From: Parabacteroides massiliensis
GTDB lineage: Bacteria; Bacteroidota; Bacteroidia; Bacteroidales; Tannerellaceae
Length of the DNA stretch: 24,000 nt
Direction: 5' to 3'
NCBI RefSeq assembly: GCF_900155425.1
Contig: NZ_LT700189.1
Span: forward strand, 465,787-489,786
In this document: piece after piece, positions 1-14,972 of the stretch
Layout: each line of letters begins with the position of its first letter
How positions within the stretch are numbered: the first letter of the stretch is position 1
Translations under genes and position numbers: made by a program
The notes under the pieces: model-generated
Told to the model about the DNA's origin: nothing
Seen by the model: the letters and a program-made list of their open reading frames with translations, nothing else
Databases searched by the model: none

Positions 1-611
1 GTCAGTATATGAATGCCTTAGAAAAAGTGGTCGATGACATGAATATTTGTCGTGGAGTAAGTATTTTGAAAGGCGATAACATAAAAAATTTATTAGAATG
101 TTCTAACCGGTTATCGGCTGTAATCATTGAACCCATGAAACCAATTGTTGATTGCTTGAAAAGCTCATTTGCCAACTTCATGCCTTCAATGAATATAAAA
201 AATGGTTATTTTGCTGCTAAATGGTGTTTTGAAAATCAATTGTATCAACAGTCTCTTACGATCTTGCATGAAACAATCATTTCTCATATTTGTGAGAGTG
301 AAGGTTTGTGTATTACTGATGAAAGAGAGAGAGAGGCAGTCAATAAGAGTTTCTATATTTTTATTAATGGTGTAGAAAAAGAAAAGTGGGATTGTGATGA
401 GAAGCAAGCGCAATTAATAGAAAAAATGTTGCATAATAGTTGTATAAAAGTTTTGGCTTCAACATTCATGGTTACAACTAATTTGAGAAATGATTACAAC
501 CATGCAGGTATGCGTTCTTGTCCGACAAAACGAACAGGGTTGATAAATAATTTGAGAGAACGTTTGGATATTATTCTTTCTATGATTGAGAATAAGGAAA
601 TATGTTCATAA
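1..611 (+). CDS. Csx1/Csm6-type HEPN ribonuclease domain protein (C-terminal half of a TM1812/Csx1-family protein); probably 5'-truncated by the window edge
   Basis: The track ORF is 9..611, but the frame stays open back to nt 3, so the gene may begin upstream of the window. 'LRNDYNHAG' (R-N-x3-H, nt 486-503) fits the HEPN R-x4-6-H catalytic motif in the form typical of Csx1-family proteins. The preceding helical stretch (AAKWCFENQLYQQSLTILHETII) resembles the Csx1 helical insert. The stop (609-611) overlaps the next ATG (602). Family call is from memory of the consensus, not a search. Confidence 0.55.
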   Translation, partial: QYMNALEKVVDDMNICRGVSILKGDNIKNLLECSNRLSAVIIEPMKPIVDCLKSSFANFMPSMNIKNGYFAAKWCFENQLYQQSLTILHETIISHICESEGLCITDEREREAVNKSFYIFINGVEKEKWDCDEKQAQLIEKMLHNSCIKVLASTFMVTTNLRNDYNHAGMRSCPTKRTGLINNLRERLDIILSMIENKEICS

Positions 612-967
612 ACCTATCCAACCATCCCTCTCATACTTGGTCTGCTGAGCAATTGGGAGCTGCTCGGCATTATGGTGGTGATATTGTCGATATACCTTTT
701 CCTTCAGTATCGGCGATGGCGAATGAAGAGATTGTTGCTTGTTTGGCGAAGGAATATGTTGGTGATATTGTTTCGCGTTATGATCCAAAGCGGGATGTGT
801 TTCATGTGATGGGAGAGATGTGTTTTTCGTTTGCATTGGTCCGGTTGTTACAACAGGCTGGATTTGTGTGTGTGGCTTCGACTTCGGAAAGGATTGTGCA
901 AGAAGAGGAGCCGGGGCATAAGGAGGTATTCTTTAATTTTGTTCGGTTCAGGCAATATGGAATCTAA
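602..967 (+). CDS. Small (121 aa) alpha/beta-type accessory protein, tentatively Csx20-like (CRISPR-associated, proposed minimal CARF-like/ring-nuclease family)
   Basis: The ATG at 602 overlaps the upstream stop, and its own stop (965-967) overlaps the next ATG (957). The N-terminus 'MFINLSNHPSHTWSAEQ' and C-terminus 'FNFVRFRQY' match my recollection of the Csx20 pattern. Csx20 genes usually sit next to csx1. It is very likely a real gene (coupled on both sides); the family assignment is tentative. Confidence 0.45.
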   Translation: MFINLSNHPSHTWSAEQLGAARHYGGDIVDIPFPSVSAMANEEIVACLAKEYVGDIVSRYDPKRDVFHVMGEMCFSFALVRLLQQAGFVCVASTSERIVQEEEPGHKEVFFNFVRFRQYGI

Positions 968-2408
968 GAAAAAGACAGAGAAAGATAATTTGGTATTGAC
1001 AGCCAATCAGCAATGTGTTTTGGAGGCGTTAGTAGAGTTTATTCGAGACAAAAAAGCAAGAATTTTTATTCTTTGCGGATATGCTGGTACAGGGAAGACG
1101 ACAATGATGAAAGTGTTTATTGGGGAGTTGGAACGGCGTAATCTACCTTTTTCCTTGTTGGCATCAACGGGAAGGGCTGCCAAGATATTGTCGAATGCAA
1201 CGAAACATTCCGCCTCTACGGTACATAGTTTGATTTATAAGTTTGATGATTTGAATCAGAATATGGACAAATTGGTGGCGCAGCGAGAAAAGAACGGTAT
1301 GGATAAATCCGTGCAATTATTGTTGAATTTTTCGCTGGTTCCGGTTGGGGAGTATTCCGGAGAGTCGAAATATTACATCGTAGATGAATCCTCCATGATT
1401 TCGGATGTTGTTGACAAGAATGCGACACAGGCCTGTTTCGGGAGTGGACGTTTATTAGCGGACCTGTTGGCTTTTGATCCGAAAGGAAAATTCGTTTTTG
1501 TCGGAGATATTTGTCAGTTGCCACCGATATTGCAGGAAAATTCGCCTGCATTATCATCCGAATATATAGGGAAGACTTACGATATACCAGTTGAAAAGAT
1601 GGAACTGACCGCGATTGTACGCCAAGATAGTGGAAATGATTTGATACTGTCTGCTCAGAAAATGCGTGCTTTGTATGTGCACCCTCCGGTCTGCACGTGG
1701 GGCCGGTTCCCTTTACGCGGGTATGAGCATATTCGTTTGTATCCCTCTCAATTTAACTTGTTGAGCGCCTATATCGAAGATATCAAACTGAAAGGGTACA
1801 ATGCGGTTACGATGCTTACGCAGTCGAATAAAGCGTGTATGGAATTGACACGTATCATCAGACCTTCTTTGGGATTTCATACTGAACAGATACAAGTTGG
1901 CGATTTGTTGCTTGTCACACAGAACAACTATATTTCCGGACTGATGAATGGAGACATGGTAAAGATAATAGAGATCGGTACAAGGCGGGATAGAGCTGGT
2001 TTGACTTTTGTTTATGTCAAGGTGGAAGAATTGTTTACCAAGACTGTCTATTCTCAGTTAATGATAGAAAACATCGTGTATGATTCGGTGACCAATTTGA
2101 CGCAAACGCAACAGAAAGAACTGTTTATTGATTTCTTTATCCGCATGAGAGATAAAGGAATTAGGCAAAAGAGCGAAGCTTTCAATAAGGCAATGATGAC
2201 GGATCCATATCTGAATGCCCTTAGAGTTGTGTTCGGTTATGTCCTAACTTGCCATAAGGCACAAGGTGGGGAGTGGGAAGAAGTTTATTTAGATATTCCG
2301 AGGCGGATTGCCAGAGAACCGAAAGCGGCTACATACCAGTGGTTGTATACGGCTATGACTCGTGCACGAAACACATTGCATATAGTGGATGATTTTTATG
2401 TTCAATAG
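957..2408 (+). CDS. SF1B RecD/Dda/Pif1-like ATP-dependent DNA helicase (AAA_30 + UvrD_C_2 type architecture)
   Basis: The track ORF starts at a TTG (831) inside the previous gene. I prefer ATG 957 ('MESKKK...'), which overlaps the upstream stop by 11 nt. Motifs: Walker A GYAGTGKTT (1077-1103), Walker B 'YIVDESSM', motif III 'VGDICQLPP', and C-terminal 'LTCHKAQGGEW...YTAMTRARNTLHIV'. Confidence 0.8.
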   Translation: MESKKKTEKDNLVLTANQQCVLEALVEFIRDKKARIFILCGYAGTGKTTMMKVFIGELERRNLPFSLLASTGRAAKILSNATKHSASTVHSLIYKFDDLNQNMDKLVAQREKNGMDKSVQLLLNFSLVPVGEYSGESKYYIVDESSMISDVVDKNATQACFGSGRLLADLLAFDPKGKFVFVGDICQLPPILQENSPALSSEYIGKTYDIPVEKMELTAIVRQDSGNDLILSAQKMRALYVHPPVCTWGRFPLRGYEHIRLYPSQFNLLSAYIEDIKLKGYNAVTMLTQSNKACMELTRIIRPSLGFHTEQIQVGDLLLVTQNNYISGLMNGDMVKIIEIGTRRDRAGLTFVYVKVEELFTKTVYSQLMIENIVYDSVTNLTQTQQKELFIDFFIRMRDKGIRQKSEAFNKAMMTDPYLNALRVVFGYVLTCHKAQGGEWEEVYLDIPRRIAREPKAATYQWLYTAMTRARNTLHIVDDFYVQ

Positions 2409-2502
2409 TATTTAGATATATAATTAATATGGGAAACAAGAGCAGTCTTGGTGGGTACCCTGTATTCATTTGTACATTTTCAGTATATCATTCCCTGTAA
2501 TT

Positions 2503-3789
2503 TTATTCCCCGAAATCTGATAACATCTCAATACGGTCGTTCATCTCTTCTTTTATTTGATGGCTCCAATAGGCATCAACCCCCGCTATATCCGCATATC
2601 GCTGGTAGTCGCTGACAACACCGATTGCCTTTTCTATGAGAGAGTCGGCTCCTTTTATATTGTATTTTTTGGCTATCTCGAGTAAGTCTCCACGTTTAAA
2701 GGCTGAGTTTTTGTTGTTTATGCTCAAGCAGTGACGATTTACGTATCCCGGAGCCGACGGATCGACCAAGAATGTGAAATCATAGGTAGGGGTAATATGC
2801 CACACCCCGTCTTGTCCCATCATGAAACTGAAATTCTTATTGTGGTCATCCACATTTCCTCCAAGCACATTCATGGTCATGGACAGGAACAGTTGTTGCA
2901 TTTCCATCGGCATGATACCAATACGACAAGCGGTTTCAAACAGAGACTCATAACTGTCTGCTACCGGATTCATTGCTGCTAAAGTCTGGATATGAATTTT
3001 CTCATTTCCTTTGCGGTCAAACCGTTCTGTCAGGAAATGTACATCCTTTTCTCCTTCAATAAGCATCGATGGCATCATTTCCATCCCTGCGTCCTGCGCC
3101 ATCAAGTAATAGCTATATTCAATACGTGTTGTCGGCAGGTCAAGATGCTCATCAAATTTGATTATCATTGGGGTGAAACCGGATGTGGGAGCATTTACCT
3201 GTCCCGAATAGCACTCATAGGTCTCCTTATTCATATGAATGATCGCTTTCGCTCTACGGCCACCGGCTGATGTTCCCACCTTGAACAGGCTCTCGATCAT
3301 CAAGTCTGGCTGCATTTTCGCTTTGAAGTCCTTAGCTTCGTTCAAGGCAGCACGGGCAAGCCTATACAGGTCGGCAATTTCCACTTTAAACGGTTTTTCC
3401 ATTTCTTCTGCGGCAGGAGGTATGAACTCCAACGCTCCCATTCCTCGCCTGCCGATGTAGGCCAAACGGTCGAGCGATGACAGGTCACGGGATTTTATAT
3501 GATGCACTTTTGCCCATTCATTAAATATCCTATTTCCCCAATGGTCAGGCAGTGAATCGGCTATGAAAGAGGGCAGGCCGCAGAAGCTCTTGTCGTCCTC
3601 CGCATAAACAGGCAATCCGCGCTGGACGGTTACACCATTTATTGGGGCTTGCAATGGAGCGATGTCATAACCACCCTTTATAAAGTCGCCGTCGAAATAA
3701 AAACATACCTTTTCAGTATATTTTTCCTTATAGGCTACCAGTGTGCCAACTTTCCGATTCCACAAAAAGACATCAAGATTTTGTATCAT
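2503..3789 (-). CDS. hipA: HipA-family type II toxin (Ser/Thr kinase)
   Basis: 428 aa. The N-terminus 'LDVFLWNRKVGTLV' fits the HipA N-terminal pattern. The C-terminal catalytic region is 'GGNVDDHNKNFSF...ITPTYDFTF'. Its start overlaps the stop of the upstream HTH gene by 17 nt (3773-3789). Confidence 0.85.
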   Translation of the reverse strand: MIQNLDVFLWNRKVGTLVAYKEKYTEKVCFYFDGDFIKGGYDIAPLQAPINGVTVQRGLPVYAEDDKSFCGLPSFIADSLPDHWGNRIFNEWAKVHHIKSRDLSSLDRLAYIGRRGMGALEFIPPAAEEMEKPFKVEIADLYRLARAALNEAKDFKAKMQPDLMIESLFKVGTSAGGRRAKAIIHMNKETYECYSGQVNAPTSGFTPMIIKFDEHLDLPTTRIEYSYYLMAQDAGMEMMPSMLIEGEKDVHFLTERFDRKGNEKIHIQTLAAMNPVADSYESLFETACRIGIMPMEMQQLFLSMTMNVLGGNVDDHNKNFSFMMGQDGVWHITPTYDFTFLVDPSAPGYVNRHCLSINNKNSAFKRGDLLEIAKKYNIKGADSLIEKAIGVVSDYQRYADIAGVDAYWSHQIKEEMNDRIEMLSDFGE

Positions 3790-4099
3790 TCTCGTTTCTC
3801 CTTACTCTTTTAGGGATTAATTTGTTTAGCTGTTTCAGTGCCAGTGGCGGCATGGGTAATTTAGGCAGCAAATCACAGACGCGTTTCTCCATGCCGATTA
3901 TCCGCAACAAGGATATGAAATTGTTTAGGGTCATGTTTTGATTGACTCCCTGTTCAAAATGGCTTATTGTGGCAAGGCTCACACCGGATTTCTCCGCCAT
4001 TTCCTTTTGGCTCATCCGGGCAGCAAGCCTGTACTCCTTTATGCGCTTTGCCAAAAGTAGCATAATATCTTGGTTGGTTACATAATCTGCATCACTCAT
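3773..4099 (-). CDS. hipB: XRE-family helix-turn-helix antitoxin (HipB-like)
   Basis: 108 aa with the HTH_XRE pattern 'IKEYRLAARMSQKEMAEKSGVSLATISHFEQG'. It lies directly upstream of hipA and overlaps it. Confidence 0.75.
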   Translation of the reverse strand: MSDADYVTNQDIMLLLAKRIKEYRLAARMSQKEMAEKSGVSLATISHFEQGVNQNMTLNNFISLLRIIGMEKRVCDLLPKLPMPPLALKQLNKLIPKRVRRNENDTKS

Positions 4100-4127
4100 A
4101 ACGTGGTAGAATATTACTATTTAATTG

Positions 4128-4135
4128 CAAAAATA
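4128..4135 (-). promoter_or_regulatory. Candidate Bacteroides-type -7 box (TATTTTTG on the minus strand) for hipBA
   Basis: The plus-strand CAAAAATA is TAnnTTTG on the minus strand, 29 nt upstream of the hipB ATG (4099). It is flanked by direct repeats ATATTACTA at 4111-4119 and 4151-4159, which could be an operator. Confidence 0.3.
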
Positions 4136-4280
4136 CAAAATAATATCCATATATTACTACTATGTGTGGGGTTTCTTCTGATTATGTAAGAAATCATTCA
4201 TTTGATTTTTTCGTATGACATGATTTGGGCAGGCAAATCTTTTTGCTGGATAAATGTTTGCTTTCCGGCGGATCTGTGAG

Positions 4281-4288
4281 TACCTTTG
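4281..4288 (+). promoter_or_regulatory. Candidate -7 box TACCTTTG (TAnnTTTG) for the DUF6078-like gene
   Basis: Exact match to the Bacteroides -7 consensus, 23 nt upstream of ATG 4311. This argues against the upstream ATGs at 4254 and 4290 as starts. Confidence 0.35.
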
Positions 4289-4310
4289 TATGATACCAAT
4301 ACATTATATT

Positions 4311-4766
4311 ATGTTAGACAAATTGGATTATTCTTTGGTTCCTTATGATTTTGCGTTTTGTTTTGACGGGAAATGCCGGCGTGCTTCTACCTGTCTGCGT
4401 TATCAGGCGTCGCGCTATATTCCGAAAGAGTCCTGGGCGGTGAGGGTGGTCAATCCGGAGCGTGTTGTTCCCGATGGCGATTGTTGCGGGTTCATGGATG
4501 ACAGTCCGCTGAGAAACGCATACGGCATGGATCATCTGCTGGACAATATTCCTTATCGCGAGGCTAAGGAGATACGGAGGGAGATGAGGGAGTATTTCGG
4601 GACTACTCATTTTTACCGGCTGAAACGCAAGGAGCGTTGTTTCACTCCCGAAGGCCAGCAATATGTGCACGACCTGCTCCGCCGGTACGGTGTCGAAGGA
4701 GAGCCGGTGTTTGACCGGTATGAAGAAAATTTCGGTTGGGAATGCAATCCTGATACTACGGCATGA
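4311..4766 (+). CDS. DUF6078-like conserved Bacteroidales protein (Cys-containing, function unknown)
   Basis: The track ORF is 4254..4766. I prefer ATG 4311 ('MLDKLDYSLVPYDFAFCFDGKCRRASTCLRY...'), which gives the typical N-terminus I recall for this family. Also present: 'HLLDNIPYREAKEIRREMREYFG...YRLKRKERCFTPE'. Confidence 0.5.
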   Translation: MLDKLDYSLVPYDFAFCFDGKCRRASTCLRYQASRYIPKESWAVRVVNPERVVPDGDCCGFMDDSPLRNAYGMDHLLDNIPYREAKEIRREMREYFGTTHFYRLKRKERCFTPEGQQYVHDLLRRYGVEGEPVFDRYEENFGWECNPDTTA

Positions 4767-4978: not shown

Positions 4979-6091
4979 ATGGAAAAACAAAAACAGTCCC
5001 GGCGGTTGCTGTCGCTGGATGCCCTGCGAGGGTTTGATATGTTCTTTATTATGGGAGGGGCTTCCCTTTTCGTTGCGTTGGCAACGTTGTTTCCGAATCC
5101 TTTTTTTCAGGCGATAGCCGATCAGATGCATCATGTGAAGTGGAACGGGCTGACACAGCACGACACGATCTTTCCGCTGTTTCTGTTTATCGCCGGCATC
5201 TCGTTCCCTTTCTCTTTGGAGAAGCAGCGGGAGCAGGGGAAGAGCGAGTCGGATATCTATAAGAAGATCATCCGCCGCGGTCTGACGTTGGTGTTGCTGG
5301 GATGTGTCTATAACGGATTGTTGCAGTTTGACTTTACGAATCTTCGCTATGCCAGTGTCTTGGCGCGTATCGGGTTGGGATGGATGTTTGCCGCCTTGTT
5401 GTTCGTACATTTCCGCACTTCTGTCCGGGCGTGGATAGCCGGGGCAATCTTGGTCGGCTATTGGGTTTGGATGGCTTTTATCCCTGTGCCGGGAGCAGAA
5501 GCCGGGCCGTTCACGTTGGAAGGTAACTGGGTCGGCTATGTGGACCGTTTGTTGTTGCCGGGGCGTTTACATCAAGGATTTTTTGACCCGGAAGGGTTGT
5601 TGTCCACGTTACCGGGAATTGTGACGGCTATGTTGGGAATGTTTACGGGCGAGTTCATCAAGTTGCATAAAGAAGGACTGACGGATAAGCGGAAGGTGGC
5701 AGGCTTGGTGCTGGCCGGTGCGTTGTTGCTGGTGGCAGGGTTGTTGTGGAGCTTGGTGTTCCCGATCAACAAAAAGCTGTGGAGCAGTTCGTTCGTCTGT
5801 GTCGTCGGAGCTTATTCGGTTTGGATGTTCGCCCTGTTTTATTACATTGTCGACGTGTTGGAGTGGCGTAAATGGACGTTCTTCTTCAAGGTGATCGGCG
5901 TGAATTCCATCACGATCTATCTGGCCCAGGAGTTCATCAACTTCTCTTTCACCTCCGACGCCCTGTTCGGGGGGCTTGCCGGGCTGATGCCGGAGGCCGT
6001 CCGGCCGTTGATCGGTTCGATCGGCTACATCGCTGTTTGTTGGGGATTCCTCTACTTCCTGTATCGTCAGCGTATTTTCTTGAAAGTGTGA
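4979..6091 (+). CDS. DUF5009/DUF1624 (HGSNAT-like, COG4299-type) multi-pass membrane acyltransferase
   Basis: The track start 4973 is GTG; the first ATG is 4979 ('MEKQKQSRRLLSLDALRGFDMFFI...'). 'R-L-x-S-L-D-x-L-R-G' followed by many hydrophobic helices is the family signature. It is a paralogue of the next gene. Confidence 0.7.
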   Translation: MEKQKQSRRLLSLDALRGFDMFFIMGGASLFVALATLFPNPFFQAIADQMHHVKWNGLTQHDTIFPLFLFIAGISFPFSLEKQREQGKSESDIYKKIIRRGLTLVLLGCVYNGLLQFDFTNLRYASVLARIGLGWMFAALLFVHFRTSVRAWIAGAILVGYWVWMAFIPVPGAEAGPFTLEGNWVGYVDRLLLPGRLHQGFFDPEGLLSTLPGIVTAMLGMFTGEFIKLHKEGLTDKRKVAGLVLAGALLLVAGLLWSLVFPINKKLWSSSFVCVVGAYSVWMFALFYYIVDVLEWRKWTFFFKVIGVNSITIYLAQEFINFSFTSDALFGGLAGLMPEAVRPLIGSIGYIAVCWGFLYFLYRQRIFLKV

Positions 6092-6098
6092 GAAGATT

Positions 6099-6126
6099 TC
6101 ATAAATCATAAATTGTAAATCATAAT
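6099..6126. repeat. Heptamer tandem array TCATAAA-TCATAAA-TTGTAAA-TCATAAT(G)
   Basis: Read directly from the sequence. The ATG of the next gene (6125) is embedded in the last unit. Confidence 0.9.
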
Positions 6127-7255
6127 GAAACCTGCTTATAAACGCCTGGAGTCGCTCGACGTGTTGCGTGGCTTCGATTTGTTTTGCCTGGTGGCTTTGG
6201 AAGGCATTCTGCATCCTCTCGGACGTGCGATAGATGCGGCGTGGTATGACGACTTTCTGTGGTGCTTCTCTCATGTGCAATGGGAGGGTTTCTCTTCGTG
6301 GGACTTGGTGATGCCGCTCTTCATGTTCATGGCGGGCGTGTCGATGCCCTTTGCCCTTTCCCGCTATAAGGCGATGCCGGATAAAGGGGCGGTCTACCGC
6401 CGTATCGTCAAACGCGTGATATTGCTTTGGATCTTCGGAATGATGTGTCAGGGGAACCTGTTGGGATTGGACCCTGACCGGATTTATCTTTATTCGAACA
6501 CCTTGCAGGCGATTGCGATGGGCTACCTGATCGCGGCCATGCTGTTCCTGCATGTGCGGCTCTCCGTGCAGATCGGGGCGGCGGTCGTCCTCTTGTTGGT
6601 CTATTGGGGGGCGATGCAGTTCATTACGGTCGATGGCTACGGAGGCGGTAACTACACGCCCGACGGAAACCTGGCCGAATGGGTGGACCGCACCGTGTTG
6701 GGGCGGTTCCGGGATGCAGCCGTGGTCGAGAACGGGCAAGTCGTGTTTGCCGAATCCTATCGTTATACGTGGATATTAAGCAGCCTGAACTTCGGAGTGA
6801 CGGTGCTGACCGGACTCTTTGCCGGACATATCCTGAAAAGCGCGATGGACCGGAAACGTAAATGGCAATGGCTGTTAGGCATCGGTGTGGCGATGGTTGC
6901 CTTGGGCTGGCTGTGGGGATTGCAGCTTCCGGTGATCAAGAAGATATGGACAAGTTCGATGGTGCTGGTCAGCAGCGGCTACTGCTTCCTGCTGATGGGT
7001 GTGTTCTATTATTGGATCGATTATAAGGGACACGGGAAGAATCTGACCTGGCTGAAAGTCTACGGCATGAATTCGATCGTGGCTTACATGTTGGCTAACG
7101 TGATTAGTTTCAGAAGTATAGGAACATCCCTCTTCCATGGTCTCGAACAATATATAGGAAATTATTATCCGGCTTTGATTGCAACGTCGAACGCGTTGAT
7201 AATTTATGTAATTTTGTGGCTGCTTTATAAACGTAATATATTTTTGAAAGTGTGA
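6125..7255 (+). CDS. DUF5009/DUF1624 (HGSNAT-like) membrane acyltransferase, tandem paralogue
   Basis: 'KRLESLDVLRGFDLFCLV...' with a multi-pass hydrophobic profile. It has the same C-terminal '...IFLKV' ending as the upstream gene. Confidence 0.7.
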   Translation: MKPAYKRLESLDVLRGFDLFCLVALEGILHPLGRAIDAAWYDDFLWCFSHVQWEGFSSWDLVMPLFMFMAGVSMPFALSRYKAMPDKGAVYRRIVKRVILLWIFGMMCQGNLLGLDPDRIYLYSNTLQAIAMGYLIAAMLFLHVRLSVQIGAAVVLLLVYWGAMQFITVDGYGGGNYTPDGNLAEWVDRTVLGRFRDAAVVENGQVVFAESYRYTWILSSLNFGVTVLTGLFAGHILKSAMDRKRKWQWLLGIGVAMVALGWLWGLQLPVIKKIWTSSMVLVSSGYCFLLMGVFYYWIDYKGHGKNLTWLKVYGMNSIVAYMLANVISFRSIGTSLFHGLEQYIGNYYPALIATSNALIIYVILWLLYKRNIFLKV

Positions 7256-7276
7256 GAGGAATGAAGGTGTGTCAAA

Positions 7277-7311
7277 ATATAAATCATAAATCATAAATCA
7301 TAAATCATAAA
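7277..7311. repeat. Heptamer tandem array ATATAAA + 4 x TCATAAA
   Basis: Read directly from the sequence. It ends 3 nt before the sdaA ATG (7315). Confidence 0.9.
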
Positions 7312-7314
7312 CCG

Positions 7315-8520
7315 ATGGAATCAATCAAGCAAATATACCGGATCGGCCACGGACCGTCCAGTAGCCATACGATGGGGCCGATGCGAGCTGCCCGGATGTT
7401 CTTGGAACGTAATCAGGGCGCAGCGCGGTTTGATGTCACTCTCTATGGCAGCCTGGCAGCCACAGGCAAGGGACACATGACGGATGCAGCCATTCTCGAA
7501 GTGCTCAGTCCGGTAGCCAAAACCAACATCATCTGGGAACCGAAGGTGTTCCTGCCTTTCCACCCGAACGGTCTCCAGTTCCGTTCGTTTGACGAAAGCG
7601 GCAAGGAGTTGGAAAACTGGACGATTTACAGTATCGGCGGCGGAACGCTGGCAAACGAAACCTACAACGAGTTGACACAAGGGCAGGTCTACGAAATGCA
7701 TACCATCAAGGATATACAAGCCTGGTGTGAGAAAACCGGCTATTCCTACTGGGAATATGTCGAACAGTGCGAAGGTCCGCAGATATGGGATTATCTGGCC
7801 GAAGTATGGGATGTGATGCAACAGGCGGTCCATAACGGGCTCGAAACCGAAGGCATTTTGCCCGGTGGCCTGGGAATCCGTCGTAAGGCGTCCGACTATA
7901 TGATCCGTGCCAAAGGTTATGGCAGCAGCATCAAAAACCGCGGGATGGTCTATGCGTATGCATTGGCTGTTTCCGAAGAGAACGCTTGCGGAGGCCAGAT
8001 CGTGACTGCTCCGACCTGCGGTTCGTGCGGTGTGATGCCTGCCGTGCTCTATCACCTGAAAGAGTCTCGCGATTTCCGTGATTCCCGTATCTTGCGTGCG
8101 TTGGCGACTGCCGGGTTGTTCGGCAATGTGGTGCGTACGAATGCATCCGTTTCCGGGGCCGAGGTAGGATGCCAGGGAGAGGTTGGTGTGGCTTGTGCGA
8201 TGGCGGCAGCGGCGGCCAGCCAGTTGTTCGGCGGGACGCCTGCCCAGATCGAGTATGCGGCCGAGATGGGGCTGGAGCACCACTTGGGGCTGACGTGCGA
8301 TCCTGTTTGCGGACTGGTCCAGATACCCTGCATCGAACGTAATGCCTTTGCGGCAGCCCGTGCGTTGGATGCGAATACTTTCTCCAACTTCTCCGATGGC
8401 AAGCACCGGGTAAGTTTCGACCAAGTAGTCGAAGTGATGCGCCAGACCGGAAACGACCTGCCGAGCCTCTATAAGGAAACATCCGAGGGCGGGCTGGCTA
8501 AGAATATGGAACGGAAATGA
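7315..8520 (+). CDS. sdaA: L-serine ammonia-lyase (L-serine dehydratase), iron-sulfur dependent, single-chain
   Basis: Motifs 'YRIGHGPSSSHTMGP', 'TAPTCGSCGV' and 'GAEVGCQGEVGVACAMAA'; 401 aa. Confidence 0.85.
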   Translation: MESIKQIYRIGHGPSSSHTMGPMRAARMFLERNQGAARFDVTLYGSLAATGKGHMTDAAILEVLSPVAKTNIIWEPKVFLPFHPNGLQFRSFDESGKELENWTIYSIGGGTLANETYNELTQGQVYEMHTIKDIQAWCEKTGYSYWEYVEQCEGPQIWDYLAEVWDVMQQAVHNGLETEGILPGGLGIRRKASDYMIRAKGYGSSIKNRGMVYAYALAVSEENACGGQIVTAPTCGSCGVMPAVLYHLKESRDFRDSRILRALATAGLFGNVVRTNASVSGAEVGCQGEVGVACAMAAAAASQLFGGTPAQIEYAAEMGLEHHLGLTCDPVCGLVQIPCIERNAFAAARALDANTFSNFSDGKHRVSFDQVVEVMRQTGNDLPSLYKETSEGGLAKNMERK

Positions 8521-8525
8521 GAAGA

Positions 8526-8607
8526 TTTATGATTTATGATTTATGATTTATTAAAGAAAAACATATCATAAATCATAAATCATAAATCATAAATCATAAA
8601 TCATAAA
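8526..8607. repeat. Inverted heptamer arrays: (TTTATGA)x3.7 at 8526-8551 facing (TCATAAA)x6 at 8566-8607; long AT-rich hairpin
   Basis: The arms are reverse complements and could form a stem of up to about 26 bp in several registers, with the loop 'ttaaagaaaaacata'. One more TCATAAA at 8621-8627 abuts the GH43 ATG. Confidence 0.85.
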
Positions 8608-8626
8608 TGAAAATTCTAACTCATAA

Positions 8627-9625
8627 ATGAAAAGAAGTTTATATCTGCTATTGTGTGCTGCCGCATTGGTTTCGTGCGGGCAGCCGAAACAACAACAGGA
8701 GGCCGCTGCCGATGTCGTGACCAGTGGTAATCCGATATTCGAGGGCTGGTATGCCGATCCCGAAGGAATCATTTACGACGATACCTATTGGGTTTTCCCG
8801 ACTTGGAGTGATGCGTATGAGAAACAGACCCATTTCGACTGCTTTTCATCCAAAGACCTCGTGAACTGGACGAAGCATTCGTCTGTGCTCGACACCTCTG
8901 CCGTGAAATGGGCGAAGAGAGCCATGTGGGCACCGTCTATCATCCATAAGGACGGCAAATATTATTTCTTCTTCGGAGCCAACGACGTGCATGAAGGCGA
9001 AGTGGGAGGAATCGGGGTTGCCGTCAGCGACCGCCCGGAAGGCCCGTATAAGGACCTGTTAGGCAAACCGCTTATCAACGAGATCGTGAACGGGGCGCAG
9101 CCGATCGACCAGTTCGTTTTTCATGACGACGACGGTCGCTACTATATGTATTACGGAGGTTGGGGACATTGCAATGTCGTCCTTCTGAACGACGACTTCA
9201 CCGGGCTGGTTCCTTTTGAAGACGGAACGGTCTATAAGGAGGTGACACCTGACAAATATGTGGAAGGTCCGTTCATGTTCAAGAAGAACGGCAAATACTA
9301 TTTCATGTGGAGCGAAGGAGGGTGGACCGGTCCCGACTATTGTGTCGCTTATGCGATTGCCGATTCGCCATTCGGGCCGTTCGACCGTGTCGCCACGATT
9401 CTCCAGCAAGATTCGACGATAGCGCGAGGTGCCGGACATCATTCGGTTATGCATGTCCCGAATTCCGAAGATTATTACATCGTCTACCATCGTCGTCCGC
9501 TGAACGACAATACCCGCGACCACCGTGTGACTTGTATCGACCGGATGACTTTCGATGAGAACGGATTCATAAATCCTGTTAAAATGACTTTCGAAGGTGT
9601 TCCTGCCCGTACAATAGGTAAGTAA
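8627..9625 (+). CDS. Glycoside hydrolase family 43 lipoprotein (beta-xylosidase/alpha-L-arabinofuranosidase type)
   Basis: Lipoprotein signal 'LLLCAAALVSCG'. GH43 motifs 'NPIFEGWYADPEGIIYDDTYWVFPT', 'WAPSIIHKDGKYYFFF' and 'EGPFMFKKNGKYYFMWSEG'. Confidence 0.8.
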   Translation: MKRSLYLLLCAAALVSCGQPKQQQEAAADVVTSGNPIFEGWYADPEGIIYDDTYWVFPTWSDAYEKQTHFDCFSSKDLVNWTKHSSVLDTSAVKWAKRAMWAPSIIHKDGKYYFFFGANDVHEGEVGGIGVAVSDRPEGPYKDLLGKPLINEIVNGAQPIDQFVFHDDDGRYYMYYGGWGHCNVVLLNDDFTGLVPFEDGTVYKEVTPDKYVEGPFMFKKNGKYYFMWSEGGWTGPDYCVAYAIADSPFGPFDRVATILQQDSTIARGAGHHSVMHVPNSEDYYIVYHRRPLNDNTRDHRVTCIDRMTFDENGFINPVKMTFEGVPARTIGK

Positions 9626-9653
9626 GGACGATTTAATCGCTAAAAGATATTAA

Positions 9654-9687
9654 AACAGGAGTGTAGCTGTTGCACTCCTGTTTTTTT
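9654..9687 (+). terminator. Rho-independent terminator after the GH43 gene
   Basis: A 10-bp perfect stem (AACAGGAGTG 9654-9663 paired with CACTCCTGTT 9673-9682), a 9-nt loop, and a run of 7 T (9681-9687). Confidence 0.8.
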
Positions 9688-9691
9688 GTAC

Positions 9692-9711
9692 TACTTTTGA
9701 CACATGTGTCA
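9692..9711 (+). promoter_or_regulatory. Candidate -7 box TACTTTTG (9692-9699) overlapping a perfect 14-bp palindrome TGACACATGTGTCA (9698-9711); likely TetR operator
   Basis: Both elements were read directly from the sequence. They lie 37 nt upstream of the TetR ATG (9748) and immediately after the terminator. Confidence 0.5.
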
Positions 9712-9747
9712 GACACGAGTGATAAAATATTTAATAACATTACAGCG

Positions 9748-10392
9748 ATGAGTACAGAAGAACTTCAGGACATGGAAAGCCGGATAATCGAAGCAGCGAA
9801 GCGGGTGTTTGTCCGAAAAGGATATGAGGCGACCAAGATGAGCGATATCGCTCTTGAAGTCGGCCTCGGCCGTACGGCCTTGCATTATTATTTCCGGACG
9901 AAGGAGATGCTTTTCGACGCTATCTTCGGCCGGTTGATGGGAGTATTGTTGCCTAATATAGAGATGATCGTGAACGAGCCTGTGTCCTGCTTGGAGAAAA
10001 TTCCCAGGATTGTAGACCAATACCTGATGATCGTCCATGCCAATCCCTCTTTCCCGATTTTTGTGGTGAATGAGTTCAACCGGGACCCGGATCATCTATA
10101 CAGAGTCATTCTGAAAGAGCCGGAACGCCTTGGACTGTTCCTGCGGTTACGGGAACAAATGTTGGAGGAAATGGAAAAAGGAATATTGAGAAAGATACCT
10201 TTGGTTTATTTGGTTTCTACGCTAATGAGCCTGGTCGTGTTTCCTGTGTTGGCGAGAAACCCGTTGACGAATGTCTTCTTTGAAGGCGATCCCCGGAAGT
10301 TTGAAGTCTTTTTACAGGAACGCGGTACATTTATCAAAGAAGTGTTGATCCGGTTGCTTACTCCGGACCGGCCGAAGGTGGAGGACGAATGA
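9748..10392 (+). CDS. TetR/AcrR-family transcriptional regulator
   Basis: The track start 9670 is a TTG lying within the terminator loop/right stem arm. I prefer ATG 9748 ('MSTEELQDMESRIIEAAKRVFVRKGYEATKMSDIALEVGLGRTALHYYFRTKEMLF', a TetR_N HTH). Confidence 0.8.
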   Translation: MSTEELQDMESRIIEAAKRVFVRKGYEATKMSDIALEVGLGRTALHYYFRTKEMLFDAIFGRLMGVLLPNIEMIVNEPVSCLEKIPRIVDQYLMIVHANPSFPIFVVNEFNRDPDHLYRVILKEPERLGLFLRLREQMLEEMEKGILRKIPLVYLVSTLMSLVVFPVLARNPLTNVFFEGDPRKFEVFLQERGTFIKEVLIRLLTPDRPKVEDE

Positions 10393-10409
10393 GAGGAGAA
10401 TATACATAT

Positions 10410-11732
10410 ATGAAACGAATGAACTTGAATGGATGGAAACGGTTAGCCTTTGTGTTGCTCGTCTTTCCCCTTGTGGCGGAAGGAGCGGGGGCACAGGAGC
10501 GTATAACGTTGGGCGAGTGCTACGAATGGGCGCATGCCAACTATCCGCAGATACACCGGTACGGGCTGATCGAACAGACCGAACAGTATAACCTGTCCAA
10601 TGCCGCCAAAGGCTGGCTGCCACAGCTCTCGGTCAATGCGAAAGCGACGTATCAGAGCGACGTGACAAAGTTGCCGTTCGATGCCGACAAGCTGTCGGCA
10701 ATCATTCCCGGAATCGAGATACCGACACTCAGCAAGGACCAGTATCAGGTCGTGGCCGAAGTGAACCAGACGATCTGGGACGGTGGCGTGATCCGTTCCG
10801 CCCGCCGGTTGACGGAAGCACAGGCAACGGCCGACCGGGAACAACTGAACAGCAACCTCTATGCCTTGAACGACCGGGTGAACCAGCTTTATTTCGGCTG
10901 TCTCCTGCAAGACGAACTGATCCGTCAGAACGGTTTGCTCCAGAAAGAGTTGCAGCTCAATATCGACCGTATCTCGGCCATGATGGAGAATGGCGTTGCC
11001 AACCTGTCCGACCGCGAAAGCATGGAAGTCGAGTTGTTGAACGCCCGCCAGAAGGCGATAGAGTTGAAAGCCGCCCGTTCGGCCTACGGCAAGATGCTGG
11101 CGGCCTTGATCGGCCGTCCGGATAGCGGGGCGTTCGTGCTGGAAGTCCCTTCGCTGCCGGAGGCTCCTTCGTTGTCGCCTGTGATCAGCCGGCCGGAGCT
11201 TCGTGCGTTGGATGCCCAAAGCGAGTTGCTCGAATTGCAGAACAAACAGTTGACCGCCGGGCTGATGCCTCGTATCGGTGCTTTCTTCCAGGGCGGTTAC
11301 GGCCGTCCGGGGTTGAATATGCTGGAAGACAGTTTCAATCCGTTCTACATCGCCGGTGTCCGTCTGAGTTGGAACATGGGTAAATTATATACCTTGAAGA
11401 ACGATCGCCGGAAGATTGCCACGGACCGCCGGGCGGTGGAAGTTGAGCGGGAGACATTCCTCTTCAATACCCGTCTCCAATTGACACAGCAGAACACGGA
11501 GATCAGGAAGATGACCGAACTGATGAAAGCCGACGATGAGATCATCCGCCTCCGCTCCAGTATCAAGAAGGCGGCCGAAGCCAAGCTGGCGAACGGCGTG
11601 ATCTCCGTCACCGACCTCATCCACGAGATCAACTCCGAAGACCTGGCCCGCCAGGCGGCTGCCACGCACCGGATACAACAGTTGCAATCAATCTATAATC
11701 ATAATGTTACTTTTGGCTTGACCCAAAAGTAA
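10410..11732 (+). CDS. TolC-family outer membrane efflux protein
   Basis: I prefer ATG 10410 ('MKRMNLNGWKRLAFVLLVFPLVAEGAGAQ', a signal peptide) over 10389. The protein has the two-repeat OEP pattern with long coiled-coil-like segments. The last 8 codons and the stop lie inside a repeat hairpin. Confidence 0.75.
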   Translation: MKRMNLNGWKRLAFVLLVFPLVAEGAGAQERITLGECYEWAHANYPQIHRYGLIEQTEQYNLSNAAKGWLPQLSVNAKATYQSDVTKLPFDADKLSAIIPGIEIPTLSKDQYQVVAEVNQTIWDGGVIRSARRLTEAQATADREQLNSNLYALNDRVNQLYFGCLLQDELIRQNGLLQKELQLNIDRISAMMENGVANLSDRESMEVELLNARQKAIELKAARSAYGKMLAALIGRPDSGAFVLEVPSLPEAPSLSPVISRPELRALDAQSELLELQNKQLTAGLMPRIGAFFQGGYGRPGLNMLEDSFNPFYIAGVRLSWNMGKLYTLKNDRRKIATDRRAVEVERETFLFNTRLQLTQQNTEIRKMTELMKADDEIIRLRSSIKKAAEAKLANGVISVTDLIHEINSEDLARQAAATHRIQQLQSIYNHNVTFGLTQK

Positions 11733-12363
11733 CCAAAAAGATCAAGGTTTGTCTGTTACTTTTGGCTTGATCCAAAAGTAACCAAAAAGTCAAGGCTTAA
11801 GCTGACGAGCTACTTCGTTCCCTTCGTTCGCTGTCGCGTCTGAAACTCGCTTCGCTCAAACAGCAGACGCTCCGGGCGCTCACTGCGGTCACTGCGCTTA
11901 ACGCTCGCCAGCTTAGGCCGGGAGCAGAGCCGGAACGGCTCTTTGGGGATTGCCGATACCGACACCTATATAACAGGCGGTATCGGCAATCATAGGAGAA
12001 AGCGGAGCTTTTTAGGAAAGGCCTAAGCGGACGGGCGTAAAGCGGAGGGTGAAGGCGTAGCGTCCGGAGCCTGCGCTGTTTGAGCGAAGCGAGTTTCGCA
12101 GGCGACAGCGTAGCCTTCACCCGGAGTAGCCCGTCCGGTTGAGCCTTGATCTTTTGGTTACTTTTGGATCAAGCCAAAAGTAACAGAACAACAGTTGGAT
12201 GTAATCCAACGAAAAAAGAAAGTTGGATGCGACCCAACGAAAAAAAATCTAGGGTATCGGGCAAAGCCCGCTCCACAGGCGACAGCGTAGCCTTCGCCCG
12301 GAGTAGCCCGTCCGGTTGAGCCTTGATCTTTTGGTTACTTTGGGATCAAGCCAAAAGTAACAG
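11706..12363. repeat. Composite palindromic intergenic repeat (REP/MITE-like) built around four copies of the hairpin GTTACTTTTGG-N6-CCAAAAGTAAC
   Basis: The hairpin occurs at 11706-11733, 11755-11782, 12157-12184 and 12334-12361. About 123-bp imperfect inverted arms lie at 11753-11875 and 12064-12186 (about 80% identity by eye). A central 13-bp inverted repeat pairs ATTGCCGATACCG (11949-11961) with 11978-11990. An 88-bp near-identical direct repeat lies at 12099-12186 and 12276-12363. Confidence 0.85.
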
Positions 12364-12401
12364 ACAAACAAATAAATAATTGAAATTAAACATCAATCAA
12401 T

Positions 12402-13292
12402 ATGAAACCGATTCTTTTATTCAGTTTAGCGTTAGCTCTGTCGGCTTGCAGTGGCAACAAGAACGACTTCGATGCCACAGGAGCATTCGAATCCACCGAA
12501 ATAATCGTTTCTTCGGAGGCGAACGGGAAGATCATGGAACTGAACCTGCAGGAAGGCGACCGGCTTGAAGCGGGCGCCGTGTTGGGTTATGTGGACAGTA
12601 TGCAGCTTTACCTCCGGAAGAAGCAACTCGAAGCGGGCCTCCGTAGCGTGGACATCCGCAAACCGGATATCCGCAAACAGATCGCTTCCCTCGAACAGCA
12701 GATCGCCGTCGCCCGGAGCGAACAGCAGCGTATGGAGAACCTGGTAAAGGCGAAAGCCGGCAACCAGAAACAGGTCGATGACATCGTCAACAACATTAAG
12801 GTGCTGCAAAAGCAATTGGATGCCCAATATTCGACCTTGCATAAAACGACGAGCGGGGCGGATGCCGAAGCGGAAAGCATCGTCTACCAGATCATGCAGC
12901 TGGACGACCAGTTGCAGAAAAGCCGCATCGTCAACCCGCAGTCCGGCACTGTCCTCGTTAAATATGCCGAACCGGGCGAAGTCACGGCTGCCGGCAAGCC
13001 TCTTTATAAGATAGCCGACACCGATCTGCTGTATCTTCGCGCTTACCCTACCGCCGAACAGCTTACGCAGTTGAAACTCGGGCAGCGGGTGCGTGTCTTT
13101 GCCGATTTCGGAGAAAAGGGACAAAAGGAATATCCCGGCACGATCACCTGGATTTCCGAAAAGTCGGAATTTACCCCGAAAGGAATCCAGACCAAGAACG
13201 AACGGGCCAATCTGGTCTATGCCGTCAAGATAGCTGTCAGGAACGATGGCTATTTGAAGATCGGACAATATGGGGAAGTCCTTTTTAAGTGA
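12402..13292 (+). CDS. HlyD-family periplasmic adaptor (membrane fusion) lipoprotein, YbhG-like
   Basis: Lipobox 'LALALSACSG'. A long coiled-coil middle region. C-terminal beta-barrel-like 'RVRVFADF...GTITWISEKSEFTPKGIQTKNERANLVYAVKI'. Confidence 0.8.
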   Translation: MKPILLFSLALALSACSGNKNDFDATGAFESTEIIVSSEANGKIMELNLQEGDRLEAGAVLGYVDSMQLYLRKKQLEAGLRSVDIRKPDIRKQIASLEQQIAVARSEQQRMENLVKAKAGNQKQVDDIVNNIKVLQKQLDAQYSTLHKTTSGADAEAESIVYQIMQLDDQLQKSRIVNPQSGTVLVKYAEPGEVTAAGKPLYKIADTDLLYLRAYPTAEQLTQLKLGQRVRVFADFGEKGQKEYPGTITWISEKSEFTPKGIQTKNERANLVYAVKIAVRNDGYLKIGQYGEVLFK

Positions 13293-13311
13293 CAATTGAG
13301 AATTGACAATG
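13290..13311 (+). repeat. Heptamer linker TGACAAT-TGAGAAT-TGACAAT(G): three TGA codons at 7-nt spacing
   Basis: TGA occurs at 13290 (the HlyD stop), 13297 and 13304, so all three frames are closed. The next gene's ATG is at 13309. Confidence 0.9.
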
Positions 13312-14232
13312 ATGAGAGAGATTGATATTCGACATATAAATAAGGCTTATGGGGAGGTTCGGGCTTTGCAGGACATCTCGTTGCACATCGGCGAAGGGGA
13401 GCTCTTCGGGCTGATCGGGCCGGACGGGGCGGGCAAGACATCGCTGTTCAGGATACTGACCACCCTGCTGCTGGCAGACAGCGGTACGGCTTCGGTCTGC
13501 GGACTGGATGTCGTACGCGATTATAAGGAGATCCGTTGGCGGGTAGGGTATATGCCGGGGCGTTTCTCCCTTTATCAAGACTTGACGGTGGAAGAGAACC
13601 TGAACTTCTTTGCTACCGTGTTCAATACGACTGTCCGGGAGAACTACGACCTGATCCGGGATATTTATGTCCAGATAGAGCCTTTCAAGAAACGGAAAGC
13701 CGGGAAGCTCTCCGGCGGGATGAAGCAGAAGTTGGCCTTGAGCTGTGCGCTGATCCATCGGCCCGATGTCCTTTTCTTGGACGAGCCGACGACGGGTGTC
13801 GATCCTGTTTCGCGTGTGGAGTTTTGGGATATGCTGGACCGGTTGAAGAGGCAAGGGATCACGATTCTGGTTTCGACGCCCTATATGGACGAGGCTTCCC
13901 GTTGCGACCGTATCGCGCTGATGCGTGGCGGACGTTGCCTGTCGGTCGATACGCCGGAAGGCATCCGCGCTACGTTCGACAAATATTTGTATGCCGTCCG
14001 GTCGGCTTCGATGTACAAACTGTTGCTCGACCTCAGAACATATCCGGATGCGGACTCCTGTTTCTCTTTCGGAGACGCGCATCATTTCTCCATTCGCAAG
14101 GAGGTGGTGGATAAAGAAGGAGAAGCCGTCTTCCGCAAGGATCTGCAAGCATTCCTGACGGCAAAAGGACATGCGGATATCGGCATCGAACCGATAAAAC
14201 CAGGTATAGAAGATTGTTTTATGGCTTTATGA
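13309..14232 (+). CDS. ABC transporter ATP-binding protein (YbhF N-half-like) with C-terminal extension
   Basis: The track start 13303 is TTG; the first ATGs are at 13309 and 13312. Motifs: Walker A 'GPDGAGKT', signature 'LSGGMKQK', Walker B 'VLFLDEPT'. Confidence 0.85.
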   Translation: MMREIDIRHINKAYGEVRALQDISLHIGEGELFGLIGPDGAGKTSLFRILTTLLLADSGTASVCGLDVVRDYKEIRWRVGYMPGRFSLYQDLTVEENLNFFATVFNTTVRENYDLIRDIYVQIEPFKKRKAGKLSGGMKQKLALSCALIHRPDVLFLDEPTTGVDPVSRVEFWDMLDRLKRQGITILVSTPYMDEASRCDRIALMRGGRCLSVDTPEGIRATFDKYLYAVRSASMYKLLLDLRTYPDADSCFSFGDAHHFSIRKEVVDKEGEAVFRKDLQAFLTAKGHADIGIEPIKPGIEDCFMAL

Positions 14233-14972
14233 TTATGAATGTAATAGAAACAGATAAACTGACGAAATGCTTCGGTTCCTTTACCGCCGTCGACCATATC
14301 AGCTTCGCGGTAGGCGAGGGGGAGATTTTCGGTTTCTTGGGAGCGAACGGAGCCGGCAAGACGACTGCCATGCGTATGTTGTGCGGCCTTTCGACACCGA
14401 CCTCCGGGACGGGAAAGGTCGCCGGTTTCGATATCTATAAGGAAACGGAACAGATCAAACGGCATATCGGCTACATGAGCCAGAAGTTTTCCCTCTACGG
14501 AGACCTGAAGGTCTGGGAGAACATCCGCTTGTATGGCGGTATCTACGGCTTGTCCGAGAAGCAACTGAAAGCGAAGACGGACGAGCTGCTCCGGGTTCTT
14601 GACCTGGAGAACGAACGGAACACCTTGGTCGATGCCCTGCCGTTGGGCTGGAAGCAAAAGCTGGCTTTCTCCGTCGCCATCATCCACGAACCCCGGATCG
14701 TTTTCCTGGACGAACCGACCGGAGGTGTCGATCCCGTCACCCGCCGCCAGTTCTGGGAGCTGATCTACCAGGCTGCCGAACGAGGCATTACGGTCTTTGT
14801 CACCACCCACTATATGGACGAGGCGGAGTATTGCAACCGTGTCTCCATCATGGTAGACGGTAAGATCGAAGCCTTGGACAGCCCTTCCGCCCTCAAATCG
14901 TCTTTCAAGGCCGGTAATATGAACGAAGTCTTCCATGCGTTGGCACGGAGAGCGAAGAGAACGGAAAATTGA
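14229..14972 (+). CDS. ABC transporter ATP-binding protein (YbhF C-half-like), degenerate signature motif
   Basis: The track start 14214 is TTG. ATG 14229 forms an ATGA overlap with the upstream stop (14230-14232). Walker A is 'GANGAGKT' and Walker B is 'IVFLDEPT'. The signature position reads 'LPLGWKQK' rather than LSGG. Confidence 0.85.
   Translation: MIMNVIETDKLTKCFGSFTAVDHISFAVGEGEIFGFLGANGAGKTTAMRMLCGLSTPTSGTGKVAGFDIYKETEQIKRHIGYMSQKFSLYGDLKVWENIRLYGGIYGLSEKQLKAKTDELLRVLDLENERNTLVDALPLGWKQKLAFSVAIIHEPRIVFLDEPTGGVDPVTRRQFWELIYQAAERGITVFVTTHYMDEAEYCNRVSIMVDGKIEALDSPSALKSSFKAGNMNEVFHALARRAKRTEN

Follow-up and report, generated by a model that had tools for sequence, protein, structure and literature searches.

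A Parabacteroides massiliensis type III-A-like CRISPR-Cas locus that ends in csx20 and a Dda-like helicase gene

Three genes at the end of a type III locus

The analyzed window, a 24,000-nucleotide (nt) stretch of the Parabacteroides massiliensis genome (RefSeq contig NZ_LT700189.1, positions 465,787 to 489,786), starts with three overlapping genes on the plus strand (Table 1). The first of these codes for the C-terminal part of a predicted CARF-HEPN RNase of the Csx1 type, the second for a small protein assigned to the Csx20 family of ring nucleases, and the third for a predicted superfamily 1B (SF1B) DNA helicase; a hipBA gene pair follows on the opposite strand. The three genes, positions 1 to 2408, represent the 3′ end of a complete, signaling-competent type III-A-like CRISPR-Cas locus, the rest of which is located upstream of the window. 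The initial annotation, made from the sequence alone, had noticed the stop-to-start overlaps within this trio and the HEPN and Walker A motifs, and all of these were found in the same places when the sequence was reread.

Table 1. Genes and protein motifs at the start of the P. massiliensis window (aa, amino acids; ORF, open reading frame)
Feature	Position	Strand	Details
csx1, 3′ part (ORF1)	1-611	+	TAA stop codon at 609-611, frame 3; no upstream stop codon within the window
HEPN catalytic motif R-N-D-Y-N-H (Rx4H)	486-503	+	Codons AGA AAT GAT TAC AAC CAT in the ORF1 frame
csx20, 121 aa	602-967	+	ATG at 602-604, TAA at 965-967; overlaps csx1 by 10 nt
SF1B helicase gene, 483 aa	957-2408	+	ATG at 957-959, stop codon at 2406-2408; overlaps csx20 by 11 nt
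Helicase Walker A motif G-T-G-K-T, aa 44-48	1086-1100	+	Within G-Y-A-G-T-G-K-T-T at 1077-1103
Helicase Walker B motif (motif II) D-E-S-S, aa 143-146	1383-1394	+	D143, E144, and S146 invariant in the homolog alignment
Helicase SF1B motif H-K-A-Q-G, aa 433-437	2253-2267	+	H433, K434, Q436, and G437 invariant in the homolog alignment
hipA	2503-3789	-	Pfam HipA_C, Couple_hipA (the Pfam set for the hipBA pair also includes HTH_3)
hipB	3773-4099	-	Pfam matches of the hipBA pair: HipA_C, Couple_hipA, HTH_3

The full locus was reconstructed from human gut metagenome contigs that were retrieved by exact-sequence look-ups and encode identical Csx20 and identical Cas6 proteins (hereafter, sister contigs). 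Its order is cas1-CAPP-cas2, a two-repeat array, cas6-cas10-csm2-csm3-csm4-csm5, a gene for a Card1/Can2-like CARF-PD-(D/E)xK nuclease, and then csx1-csx20-helicase, after which comes hipBA. The hallmarks of type III-A systems, namely cas10 (csm1) with the HD and GGDD motifs, csm2 to csm5, cas6, and a CRISPR array, are all present upstream of the window. Cas10 carries HD (aa 15) and GGDD (aa 657) motifs and matches the PADLOC profile Cas10a with an E value of 1e-110; the Card1/Can2-like nuclease matches CARF_PDDEXK (E value, 3e-147), and CAPP is a primase-polymerase of the BT4734/VirE_N type (PADLOC PrimPol; E value, 6e-26). The array, located between cas2 and cas6 (L100:9487-9595), consists of two repeats, CTCGTATATAGTATTCCAGTATAATAAGGATTA, and a single spacer. 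In the loci examined first, the sequence immediately preceding cas6 contained no array; the two-repeat array appeared further upstream. Its repeats are related to the type III repeat of Bacteroides ovatus, with which they share a very similar core. The array of the B. ovatus locus is long: the 1.6-kb segment that was inspected (L016:13900-15500) contained 17 repeats.

Scans of the 24,000-nt window for repeats and genes detected no CRISPR array, no copy of the repeat of this system, and no cas10 or csm genes; the initial annotation had seen no cas genes or array in the 21 kb downstream of the trio. That annotation had offered two readings of the trio, an orphan module responsive to cyclic oligoadenylate (cOA) and the far end of a type III locus situated upstream of the window, and had proposed looking for cas10/csm genes or an array beyond the start of the window. 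Both were found on the sister contigs, and the full locus is present on every contig with identical proteins, immediately upstream of the trio, which bears out the second reading and rules against the first. In practical terms, the supposed orphan module is where a complete, ordinary CRISPR locus ends.

The csm5 gene of sister contig L001 (L001:5786-7543) codes for a protein of 585 aa, and Csm5 has this length in several other loci as well, compared to ∼367 to 395 aa in Parabacteroides goldsteinii, B. ovatus, and others. No confident domain was recognized in the extra ∼200 aa, which show only a weak, subthreshold match to RVT_1.

The frame of ORF1 is open back to the first position of the window, so this gene is truncated at its 5′ end. 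In sister contig L001, whose position 9400 corresponds to position 1 of the window, the full-length csx1 gene occupies positions 8694 to 10010; it starts 706 nt upstream of the window and codes for a protein of 438 aa, of which the window includes residues ∼236 to 438. The fragment had no match in Pfam or NCBIfam, and a sequence search of the PDB returned nothing. Pfam and NCBIfam being nearly silent on both Csx1 and Csx20, the CRISPR accessory profiles of PADLOC were decisive. The fragment matched only the C-terminal (HEPN) halves of the Csx1 and CARF_HEPN profiles (E values from 1e-30 to 8e-35), and the full-length protein matched CARF_HEPN from end to end (PDLC01824, positions 3 to 373 of 376; E value, 5e-101). 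These matches uphold its earlier assignment as a Csx1-type HEPN protein, and the N-terminal CARF domain, for which a search upstream had been advised, is indeed present in the 438-aa protein, encoded upstream of the window. The sequence RNDYNH (aa 398 to 403) is the sole Rx4-6H match in full-length Csx1. Judging from these profiles and motifs, ORF1 is the C-terminal half of a CARF-HEPN Csx1, a predicted RNase stimulated by cyclic tetra-adenylate (cA4).

The 121-aa product of the second gene (WP_081415348.1), currently annotated as “hypothetical protein,” matched the PADLOC profile PDLC01397 over its whole length (residues 1 to 119 on profile positions 1 to 114 of 114; E value, 6.4e-41) and carries all 14 invariant residues of the Csx20 family, in agreement with its initial description as a Csx20-like miniprotein. 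Its precomputed Pfam family is PF27247 (MJ1673). The score against the NCBIfam model CAS_Csx20 (NF040559) is 31 bits, below the cut-off of 70, which places the protein in a divergent Bacteroidota branch. In its AlphaFold2 model (predicted local distance difference test [pLDDT] score of 96), the best Foldseek matches are mostly to structures of the CARF, SAVED, and Crn1 types, all of them weak and none statistically significant, and a PDB sequence search returned only spurious matches to designed repeat proteins. The gene is found in the company of csx1 and the Card1/Can2-like CARF nuclease gene, downstream of the GGDD-bearing cas10. This protein can be predicted to be a Csx20, a member of a family of CARF-like cA4 ring nucleases. 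The ring nuclease activity of Csx20, given in the initial annotation as proposed, has since been demonstrated for a family representative, which degrades cA4; in type III loci that contain cA4 effectors, Csx20 is the ring nuclease found most often (Hoikkala et al., bioRxiv 10.1101/2024.09.24.614671). The P. massiliensis protein resembles published Csx20 in its full-length profile match, its small α/β fold, which may be CARF-like, and its location beside cA4-type effectors (Csx1 and the Card1/Can2-like nuclease), an association also reported in that study, and differs from it by scoring below the NCBIfam cut-off and by being translationally coupled to a helicase. A 508-aa protein encoded right after the helicase in another locus (L052:11454-12980) contains an N-terminal Csx20 domain (E value, 3.5e-48), followed by hydrophobic, apparently membrane-spanning segments and an uncharacterized C-terminal region. 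Possibly, this protein is a Csx20 fusion that associates with membranes.

The third protein (WP_075965358.1) has Pfam matches to AAA_30, AAA_19, UvrD_C_2, and PIF1. Its SF1 motifs are intact, including, in addition to those listed in Table 1, GDICQ (aa 183) and TRA (aa 468), and are invariant across 17 homologs (alignment A1), as are the individual residues G44, T45, G46, K47, and T48 of the Walker A motif. The AlphaFold2 model (pLDDT score of 80.6) retrieved the deep-sea helicase DSH9 (PDB entry 8JX6; E value, 1.9e-22), phage T4 Dda (3UPU; 1.7e-21), and RecD2 (3GPL; 3.2e-19) in Foldseek searches. Its description in the initial annotation as a RecD/Dda-like SF1B helicase therefore stands. The scores against the equivalog models RecD2 (TIGR01448, 101 bits with a cut-off of 500) and RecD (TIGR01447, 64 bits with a cut-off of 310) fall below the respective cut-offs, so the protein is RecD-like without being an ortholog of either. 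With T4 Dda, Deinococcus radiodurans RecD2, and DSH9 it shares the fold (template modeling scores of ∼0.55 to 0.70), the Walker A, Walker B, GDxxQ, and HKxQG motifs, and a minimal architecture of ∼450 to 480 aa without extra domains, whereas sequence identity to them is only 18 to 20% and the dedicated CRISPR context is its own. It can be described as a minimal Dda/RecD2-like SF1B helicase with predicted 5′-3′ DNA-unwinding activity.

The best PADLOC profile for this protein is PDC-M16A (E value, 4e-114), well ahead of typeIV_RecD (E value, 8e-26). Identification as a full PDC-M16A/TOTE helicase was rejected, as only positions 9 to 485 of the 721-position profile are covered and there is no TBP-TOTE domain. 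Genuine PDC-M16A proteins, for example P0314, align with profile positions 9 to 714 and carry this domain (PF22721). PDC-M16A proteins, encoded by gene A of the PADLOC candidate system PDC-M16, appear as a sister clade of conflict-associated Dda-like helicases; they are 690 to 930 aa long and end in a TATA-binding-like TOTE domain, with an RNase T-like exonuclease at the N terminus of some, whereas the P. massiliensis protein ends where the helicase core ends. No useful description of PDC-M16 and the TOTE system was found in the literature.

The helicase in other Bacteroidota

Close homologs of the helicase, with 83% identity in P. goldsteinii, 74% in another Parabacteroides-type species, and 60% in B. 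ovatus, all lie within type III loci, where their genes come after csx20 or a csx1::csx20 fusion, and in B. ovatus the gene is followed by cas1-CAPP-cas2 and the array. For a wider survey, one genome per species was scanned with the helicase alignment, which yielded 80 loci (39 to 57% identity) from Bacteroidales, Saprospiraceae, and Flavobacteriaceae; these were annotated with purpose-built hidden Markov models. Type III genes are present at 71 of the 80 loci, so that the co-occurrence across genomes, which the initial annotation had named as a check, proved to be strong. Csx20, either free or fused to Csx1, adjoins the helicase in 53 loci, upstream of it in 42 (in one of these, fused to it) and downstream in 11. 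The cas1 gene lies directly downstream of the helicase in 39 loci and is separated from it only by csx20 in 6 more (45 of 80). Among 45 related loci with csx20 upstream, the stop codon of csx20 overlaps the start of the helicase gene in 23 (by 8 nt in 12 loci and by 11 nt in 5), and the two genes are 0 to 30 nt apart in another 14. Where at least 2 kb of sequence was available on both sides (57 loci), the helicase has both neighbors in 28 cases, only csx20 in 12, only cas1 in 3, and neither in 14. Conversely, in metagenomic loci anchored on Csx20, the helicase is present in 29 of the 54 with adequate flanks. In Bacteroidota type III loci, the helicase gene is an accessory that recurs without being obligatory, and its canonical slot is between csx20 and cas1-CAPP-cas2.

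The remaining 9 of the 80 homologs have no cas gene in the surrounding sequence examined. Four of these, with 40 to 47% identity, were scanned: one gene is located 4 nt downstream of uvrB (L095:7763-11449), one beside recG (L045:7773-11440), one next to an AbiEi/AbiEii pair (L093), and one before a gene for a 1,395-aa STAND-TPR NTPase (L046). Such neighborhoods suggest a general DNA-repair or conflict helicase that has been recruited into CRISPR loci.

The block consisting of the card1-like gene, csx1::csx20, the helicase gene, and cas1-CAPP-cas2 is also attached to a second effector module (L024, L027, L034, L036, L037, L041, L043, L066, L078, and others), which is composed of large fused RAMP proteins (∼450 to 500 and ∼750 to 830 aa) and in which the III-A Cas10 model mostly detects no cas10. 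With both modules sharing it, this accessory and adaptation block appears to have been exchanged between type III subtypes. In two loci (L033:12468-14726 and L096:13097-15379), the CAPP gene between cas1 and cas2 codes for ∼750 to 760 aa instead of ∼340 aa, pointing to an extended primase-polymerase that may be joined to a helicase, like VirE/VapE-like proteins.

A helicase in this setting has been reported before, although the initial annotation could not name such an effector combination. CAPP_B primase-polymerases are almost exclusive to type III operons of Bacteroidetes, and in one such operon, from Dysgonamonadaceae, Cas1 was found to bind CAPP, Cas2, and a neighboring “putative RecD-like helicase” (DbRecD) in yeast two-hybrid assays (Zabrady et al. 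2021, Nat Commun, PMC8211822). A Dysgonamonadaceae metagenome-assembled genome in the present set (L039) has the matching operon order, helicase-cas1-CAPP (337 aa), and its helicase is 50% identical to that of P. massiliensis, from which we infer that the latter belongs to the same family as DbRecD. The likeness, which is one of operon and description, includes the phylum, the SF1B type, and the succession of type III genes, helicase, cas1, the VirE_N/BT4734-type primase-polymerase CAPP, and cas2. The P. massiliensis helicase is likewise encoded in a Bacteroidetes type III locus with cas1-CAPP(VirE_N)-cas2; the difference is that this block is located at the other (5′) end of the locus. Zabrady et al. 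(PMC8211822) mention neither csx20, nor the gene overlap, nor Csx20-helicase fusions. A joint occurrence of Csx20 and this helicase is also not mentioned in the ring nuclease survey (bioRxiv 10.1101/2024.09.24.614671), in which the word “helicase” occurs 0 times, in the 2025 CRISPR classification, or in a review of type III adaptation. Helicase-linked accessory clusters of type III systems were listed by Shah et al. 2018 (PMC6546367), and the cluster of the P. massiliensis helicase is not among them.

In-frame fusions of Csx20 to the helicase, for which no published mention was found, were detected in 4 of the best 150 representatives of the helicase family (clustered at 50% identity): P0256, P0282, P0288, and P0301, with Csx20 domain E values from 8e-15 to 4e-41. 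A fifth fusion, at L080, has a helicase domain 85% identical to that of P0256, and in total the fusions come from at least two lineages. In L105, the fusion gene lies at the canonical position, with a Card1-like gene on one side and cas1-CAPP-cas2 on the other. In L104 (positions 812 to 2992), a free gene for a 115-aa Csx20 precedes the fusion gene, which results in two tandem Csx20 copies. The Csx20 domain of P0301 is degenerate: its conserved NHP, GE, and R motifs have been lost, yet the domain itself is kept. The fusion evidence is suggestive and not decisive, because a single mutation can fuse overlapping neighbors and because Csx20 fuses equally readily to Csx1. The association of the helicase with type III loci having already been published, the new part consists of these fusions and of the retention of csx20 over cas1 (see below), and the fusions with the linkage statistics amount to a modest new lead.

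Possible roles of the Csx20-helicase pair

Spacer acquisition in type III systems and its coordination with cOA signaling are poorly understood, and the pair of Csx20 and the helicase may bear on both. The signaling steps of the mechanism proposed here follow the established functions of the protein families involved. The Csm complex would bind invader RNA, whereupon Cas10 would make cA4; cA4 would activate the Csx1 HEPN RNase and the CARF-PD-(D/E)xK nuclease; and Csx20 would degrade cA4, resetting the system. The helicase, co-translated with Csx20, could unwind or translocate on invader DNA, possibly DNA that has been damaged by the cA4-activated nuclease, and might thereby supply CAPP and Cas1-Cas2 with material for making and integrating prespacers. 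It is most likely that the helicase supports spacer acquisition while being coupled to Csx20, to which it is probably also physically bound; the Csx20::helicase fusions count in favor of this coupling. Taken as a whole, the reading in which the window holds the tail of a complete type III-A-like locus together with a helicase that aids spacer acquisition and is coupled to Csx20 appears reasonably likely. The role in adaptation is favored because of the modal position of the helicase and the published interaction with Cas1; since the gene is located at the boundary with the adaptation genes, this role is at least as likely as that of a cOA effector. In Bacteroidota, including abundant genera of the human gut, a dedicated Dda-like helicase is found between a ring nuclease and cas1.

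Several observations weigh against a role in adaptation. The sole experimental datum on the role of the helicase is the yeast two-hybrid interaction of its putative ortholog DbRecD, and in the genomic record its coupling to csx20 is at least as strong as its link to cas1. Where the usual order is broken, the helicase keeps csx20 (12 loci) more often than cas1 (3 loci). In P. massiliensis and other Parabacteroides, cas1-CAPP-cas2 is found at the opposite end of the locus, ∼13 kb away, and the helicase gene still overlaps csx20. Many of the csx20 loci that lack the helicase run csx20-cas1-CAPP-cas2 directly, so that in close relatives the helicase is dispensable for adaptation. Finally, there was no helicase-Cas1 fusion among the best 150 helicase representatives.

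In an alternative explanation, the helicase would itself be an output of cA4 signaling, with Csx20 (or the Csx20 domain) serving as the cA4-binding sensor or timer that switches it on or off; the pair would then constitute a cOA effector of a new kind, acting on invader DNA by unwinding it or by stripping off proteins. We consider this explanation possible but unlikely. Its support comes from the Csx20::helicase fusions, seen in more than one lineage; from L104, where the presence of a free Csx20 next to the fusion suggests that bulk clearance of cA4 is not what the fused copy is for; from P0301, where the fused domain was retained in spite of its lost motifs; from the helicase staying with csx20 when cas1 moves away; and from the conservation of the 8- or 11-nt overlap. 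However, Csx20 has been shown to be a fast ring nuclease acting on cA4 and is not known as an allosteric sensor (bioRxiv 10.1101/2024.09.24.614671). It is just as readily fused to Csx1, where the fusion is read as a built-in off-switch, and genes whose stop and start codons overlap are easily joined by a single mutation. Moreover, the helicase is found without csx20 in the flanks examined in L036, L055, and L096, and about half of the csx20 loci do without the helicase.

Less likely still is a combination of both roles, in which Csx20 and the helicase, products of overlapping genes in P. massiliensis and parts of a single fused protein elsewhere, would be one machine that ties the cA4 alarm to spacer acquisition: Csx20 would sense cA4 or clear it locally and thereby license the Cas1-bound helicase to feed invader DNA to CAPP-Cas1-Cas2. 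If true, CRISPR adaptation in type III systems would be under the control of a second messenger. In any case, the pair represents a concrete and genetically tractable candidate for a link of signaling with adaptation.

The helicase could also be a Cas3-like helper of interference that unwinds target DNA for processive degradation by the HD domain of Cas10 or by the Card1/Can2-like nuclease, a role proposed by Shah et al. 2018 (PMC6546367) for helicase and nuclease accessory genes of type III systems. In the surveyed type III loci, the helicase is always accompanied by a CARF-PD-(D/E)xK nuclease or Csx1, and in L055, L074, L075, L094, and L098 its gene is located beside cas6/cas10. Nevertheless, the preferred position is at the adaptation end, a two-hybrid interaction with Cas1 is reported (PMC8211822), and no nuclease fusion was seen within the CRISPR-linked helicase clade, which makes such a role rather improbable. 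Like the type IV-D RecD-like helicase, the type IV CasDinG, and the type I Cas3, the P. massiliensis protein is a helicase dedicated to a class 1 CRISPR locus. Those proteins belong to other CRISPR types and have roles in interference, and the match to typeIV_RecD is far weaker than that to PDC-M16A; unlike with them, the gene position and the two-hybrid results speak for a link to the adaptation module.

An orphan cOA module without an associated type III system, or a helicase of housekeeping function that ended up beside csx20 by chance, could be imagined from the window, which contains no cas10/csm genes or array, and from the nine homologs without cas genes in the sequence examined, four of them with uvrB, recG, AbiE, or STAND NTPase neighbors, but such a reading is extremely improbable given the 71 homologs from many Bacteroidota families inside type III loci, and for P. 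massiliensis it is refuted by the complete upstream locus on the sister contigs.

Composition and flanks of the locus

The GC content of the trio was initially put at about 35 to 37% in the lines counted. It is indeed below that of the rest of the window, but it is not uniform: the values are 32.2% for positions 1 to 611, 44.3% for csx20, and 41.7% for the helicase gene, compared to 44.9% for hipBA and 51.4% for positions 5001 to 24000. On a sister contig, the whole CRISPR locus has a GC content of 37.3%, the upstream flank 47.4%, and the other flank 51%. A scan of positions 1 to 4400 for promoters and terminators found fewer sites than in shuffled sequence and therefore provides no evidence for internal transcription units.

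The hipBA pair beside the trio, noticed in the initial annotation and recognized by its Pfam matches, is a convergent toxin-antitoxin neighbor outside the CRISPR locus. It is absent from the same site in P. goldsteinii-type loci, where the helicase gene directly abuts the conserved flank. The pair is an insertion between the helicase gene and a conserved chromosomal flank that codes for an acyltransferase, a 376-aa protein, and L-serine dehydratase. Some P. massiliensis-type contigs have an extra DUF418 gene between hipB and the DUF6078 gene (window positions 4254 to 4766; L003 to L005), and a DUF6078 fragment is also found upstream of cas6 in P. goldsteinii-type loci. Further downstream, AT-rich tandem repeats of heptamers (AAATCAT or ATCATAA, up to 9 copies) occupy intergenic positions 7275 to 7311 and 8524 to 8633, flanking the L-serine dehydratase gene.

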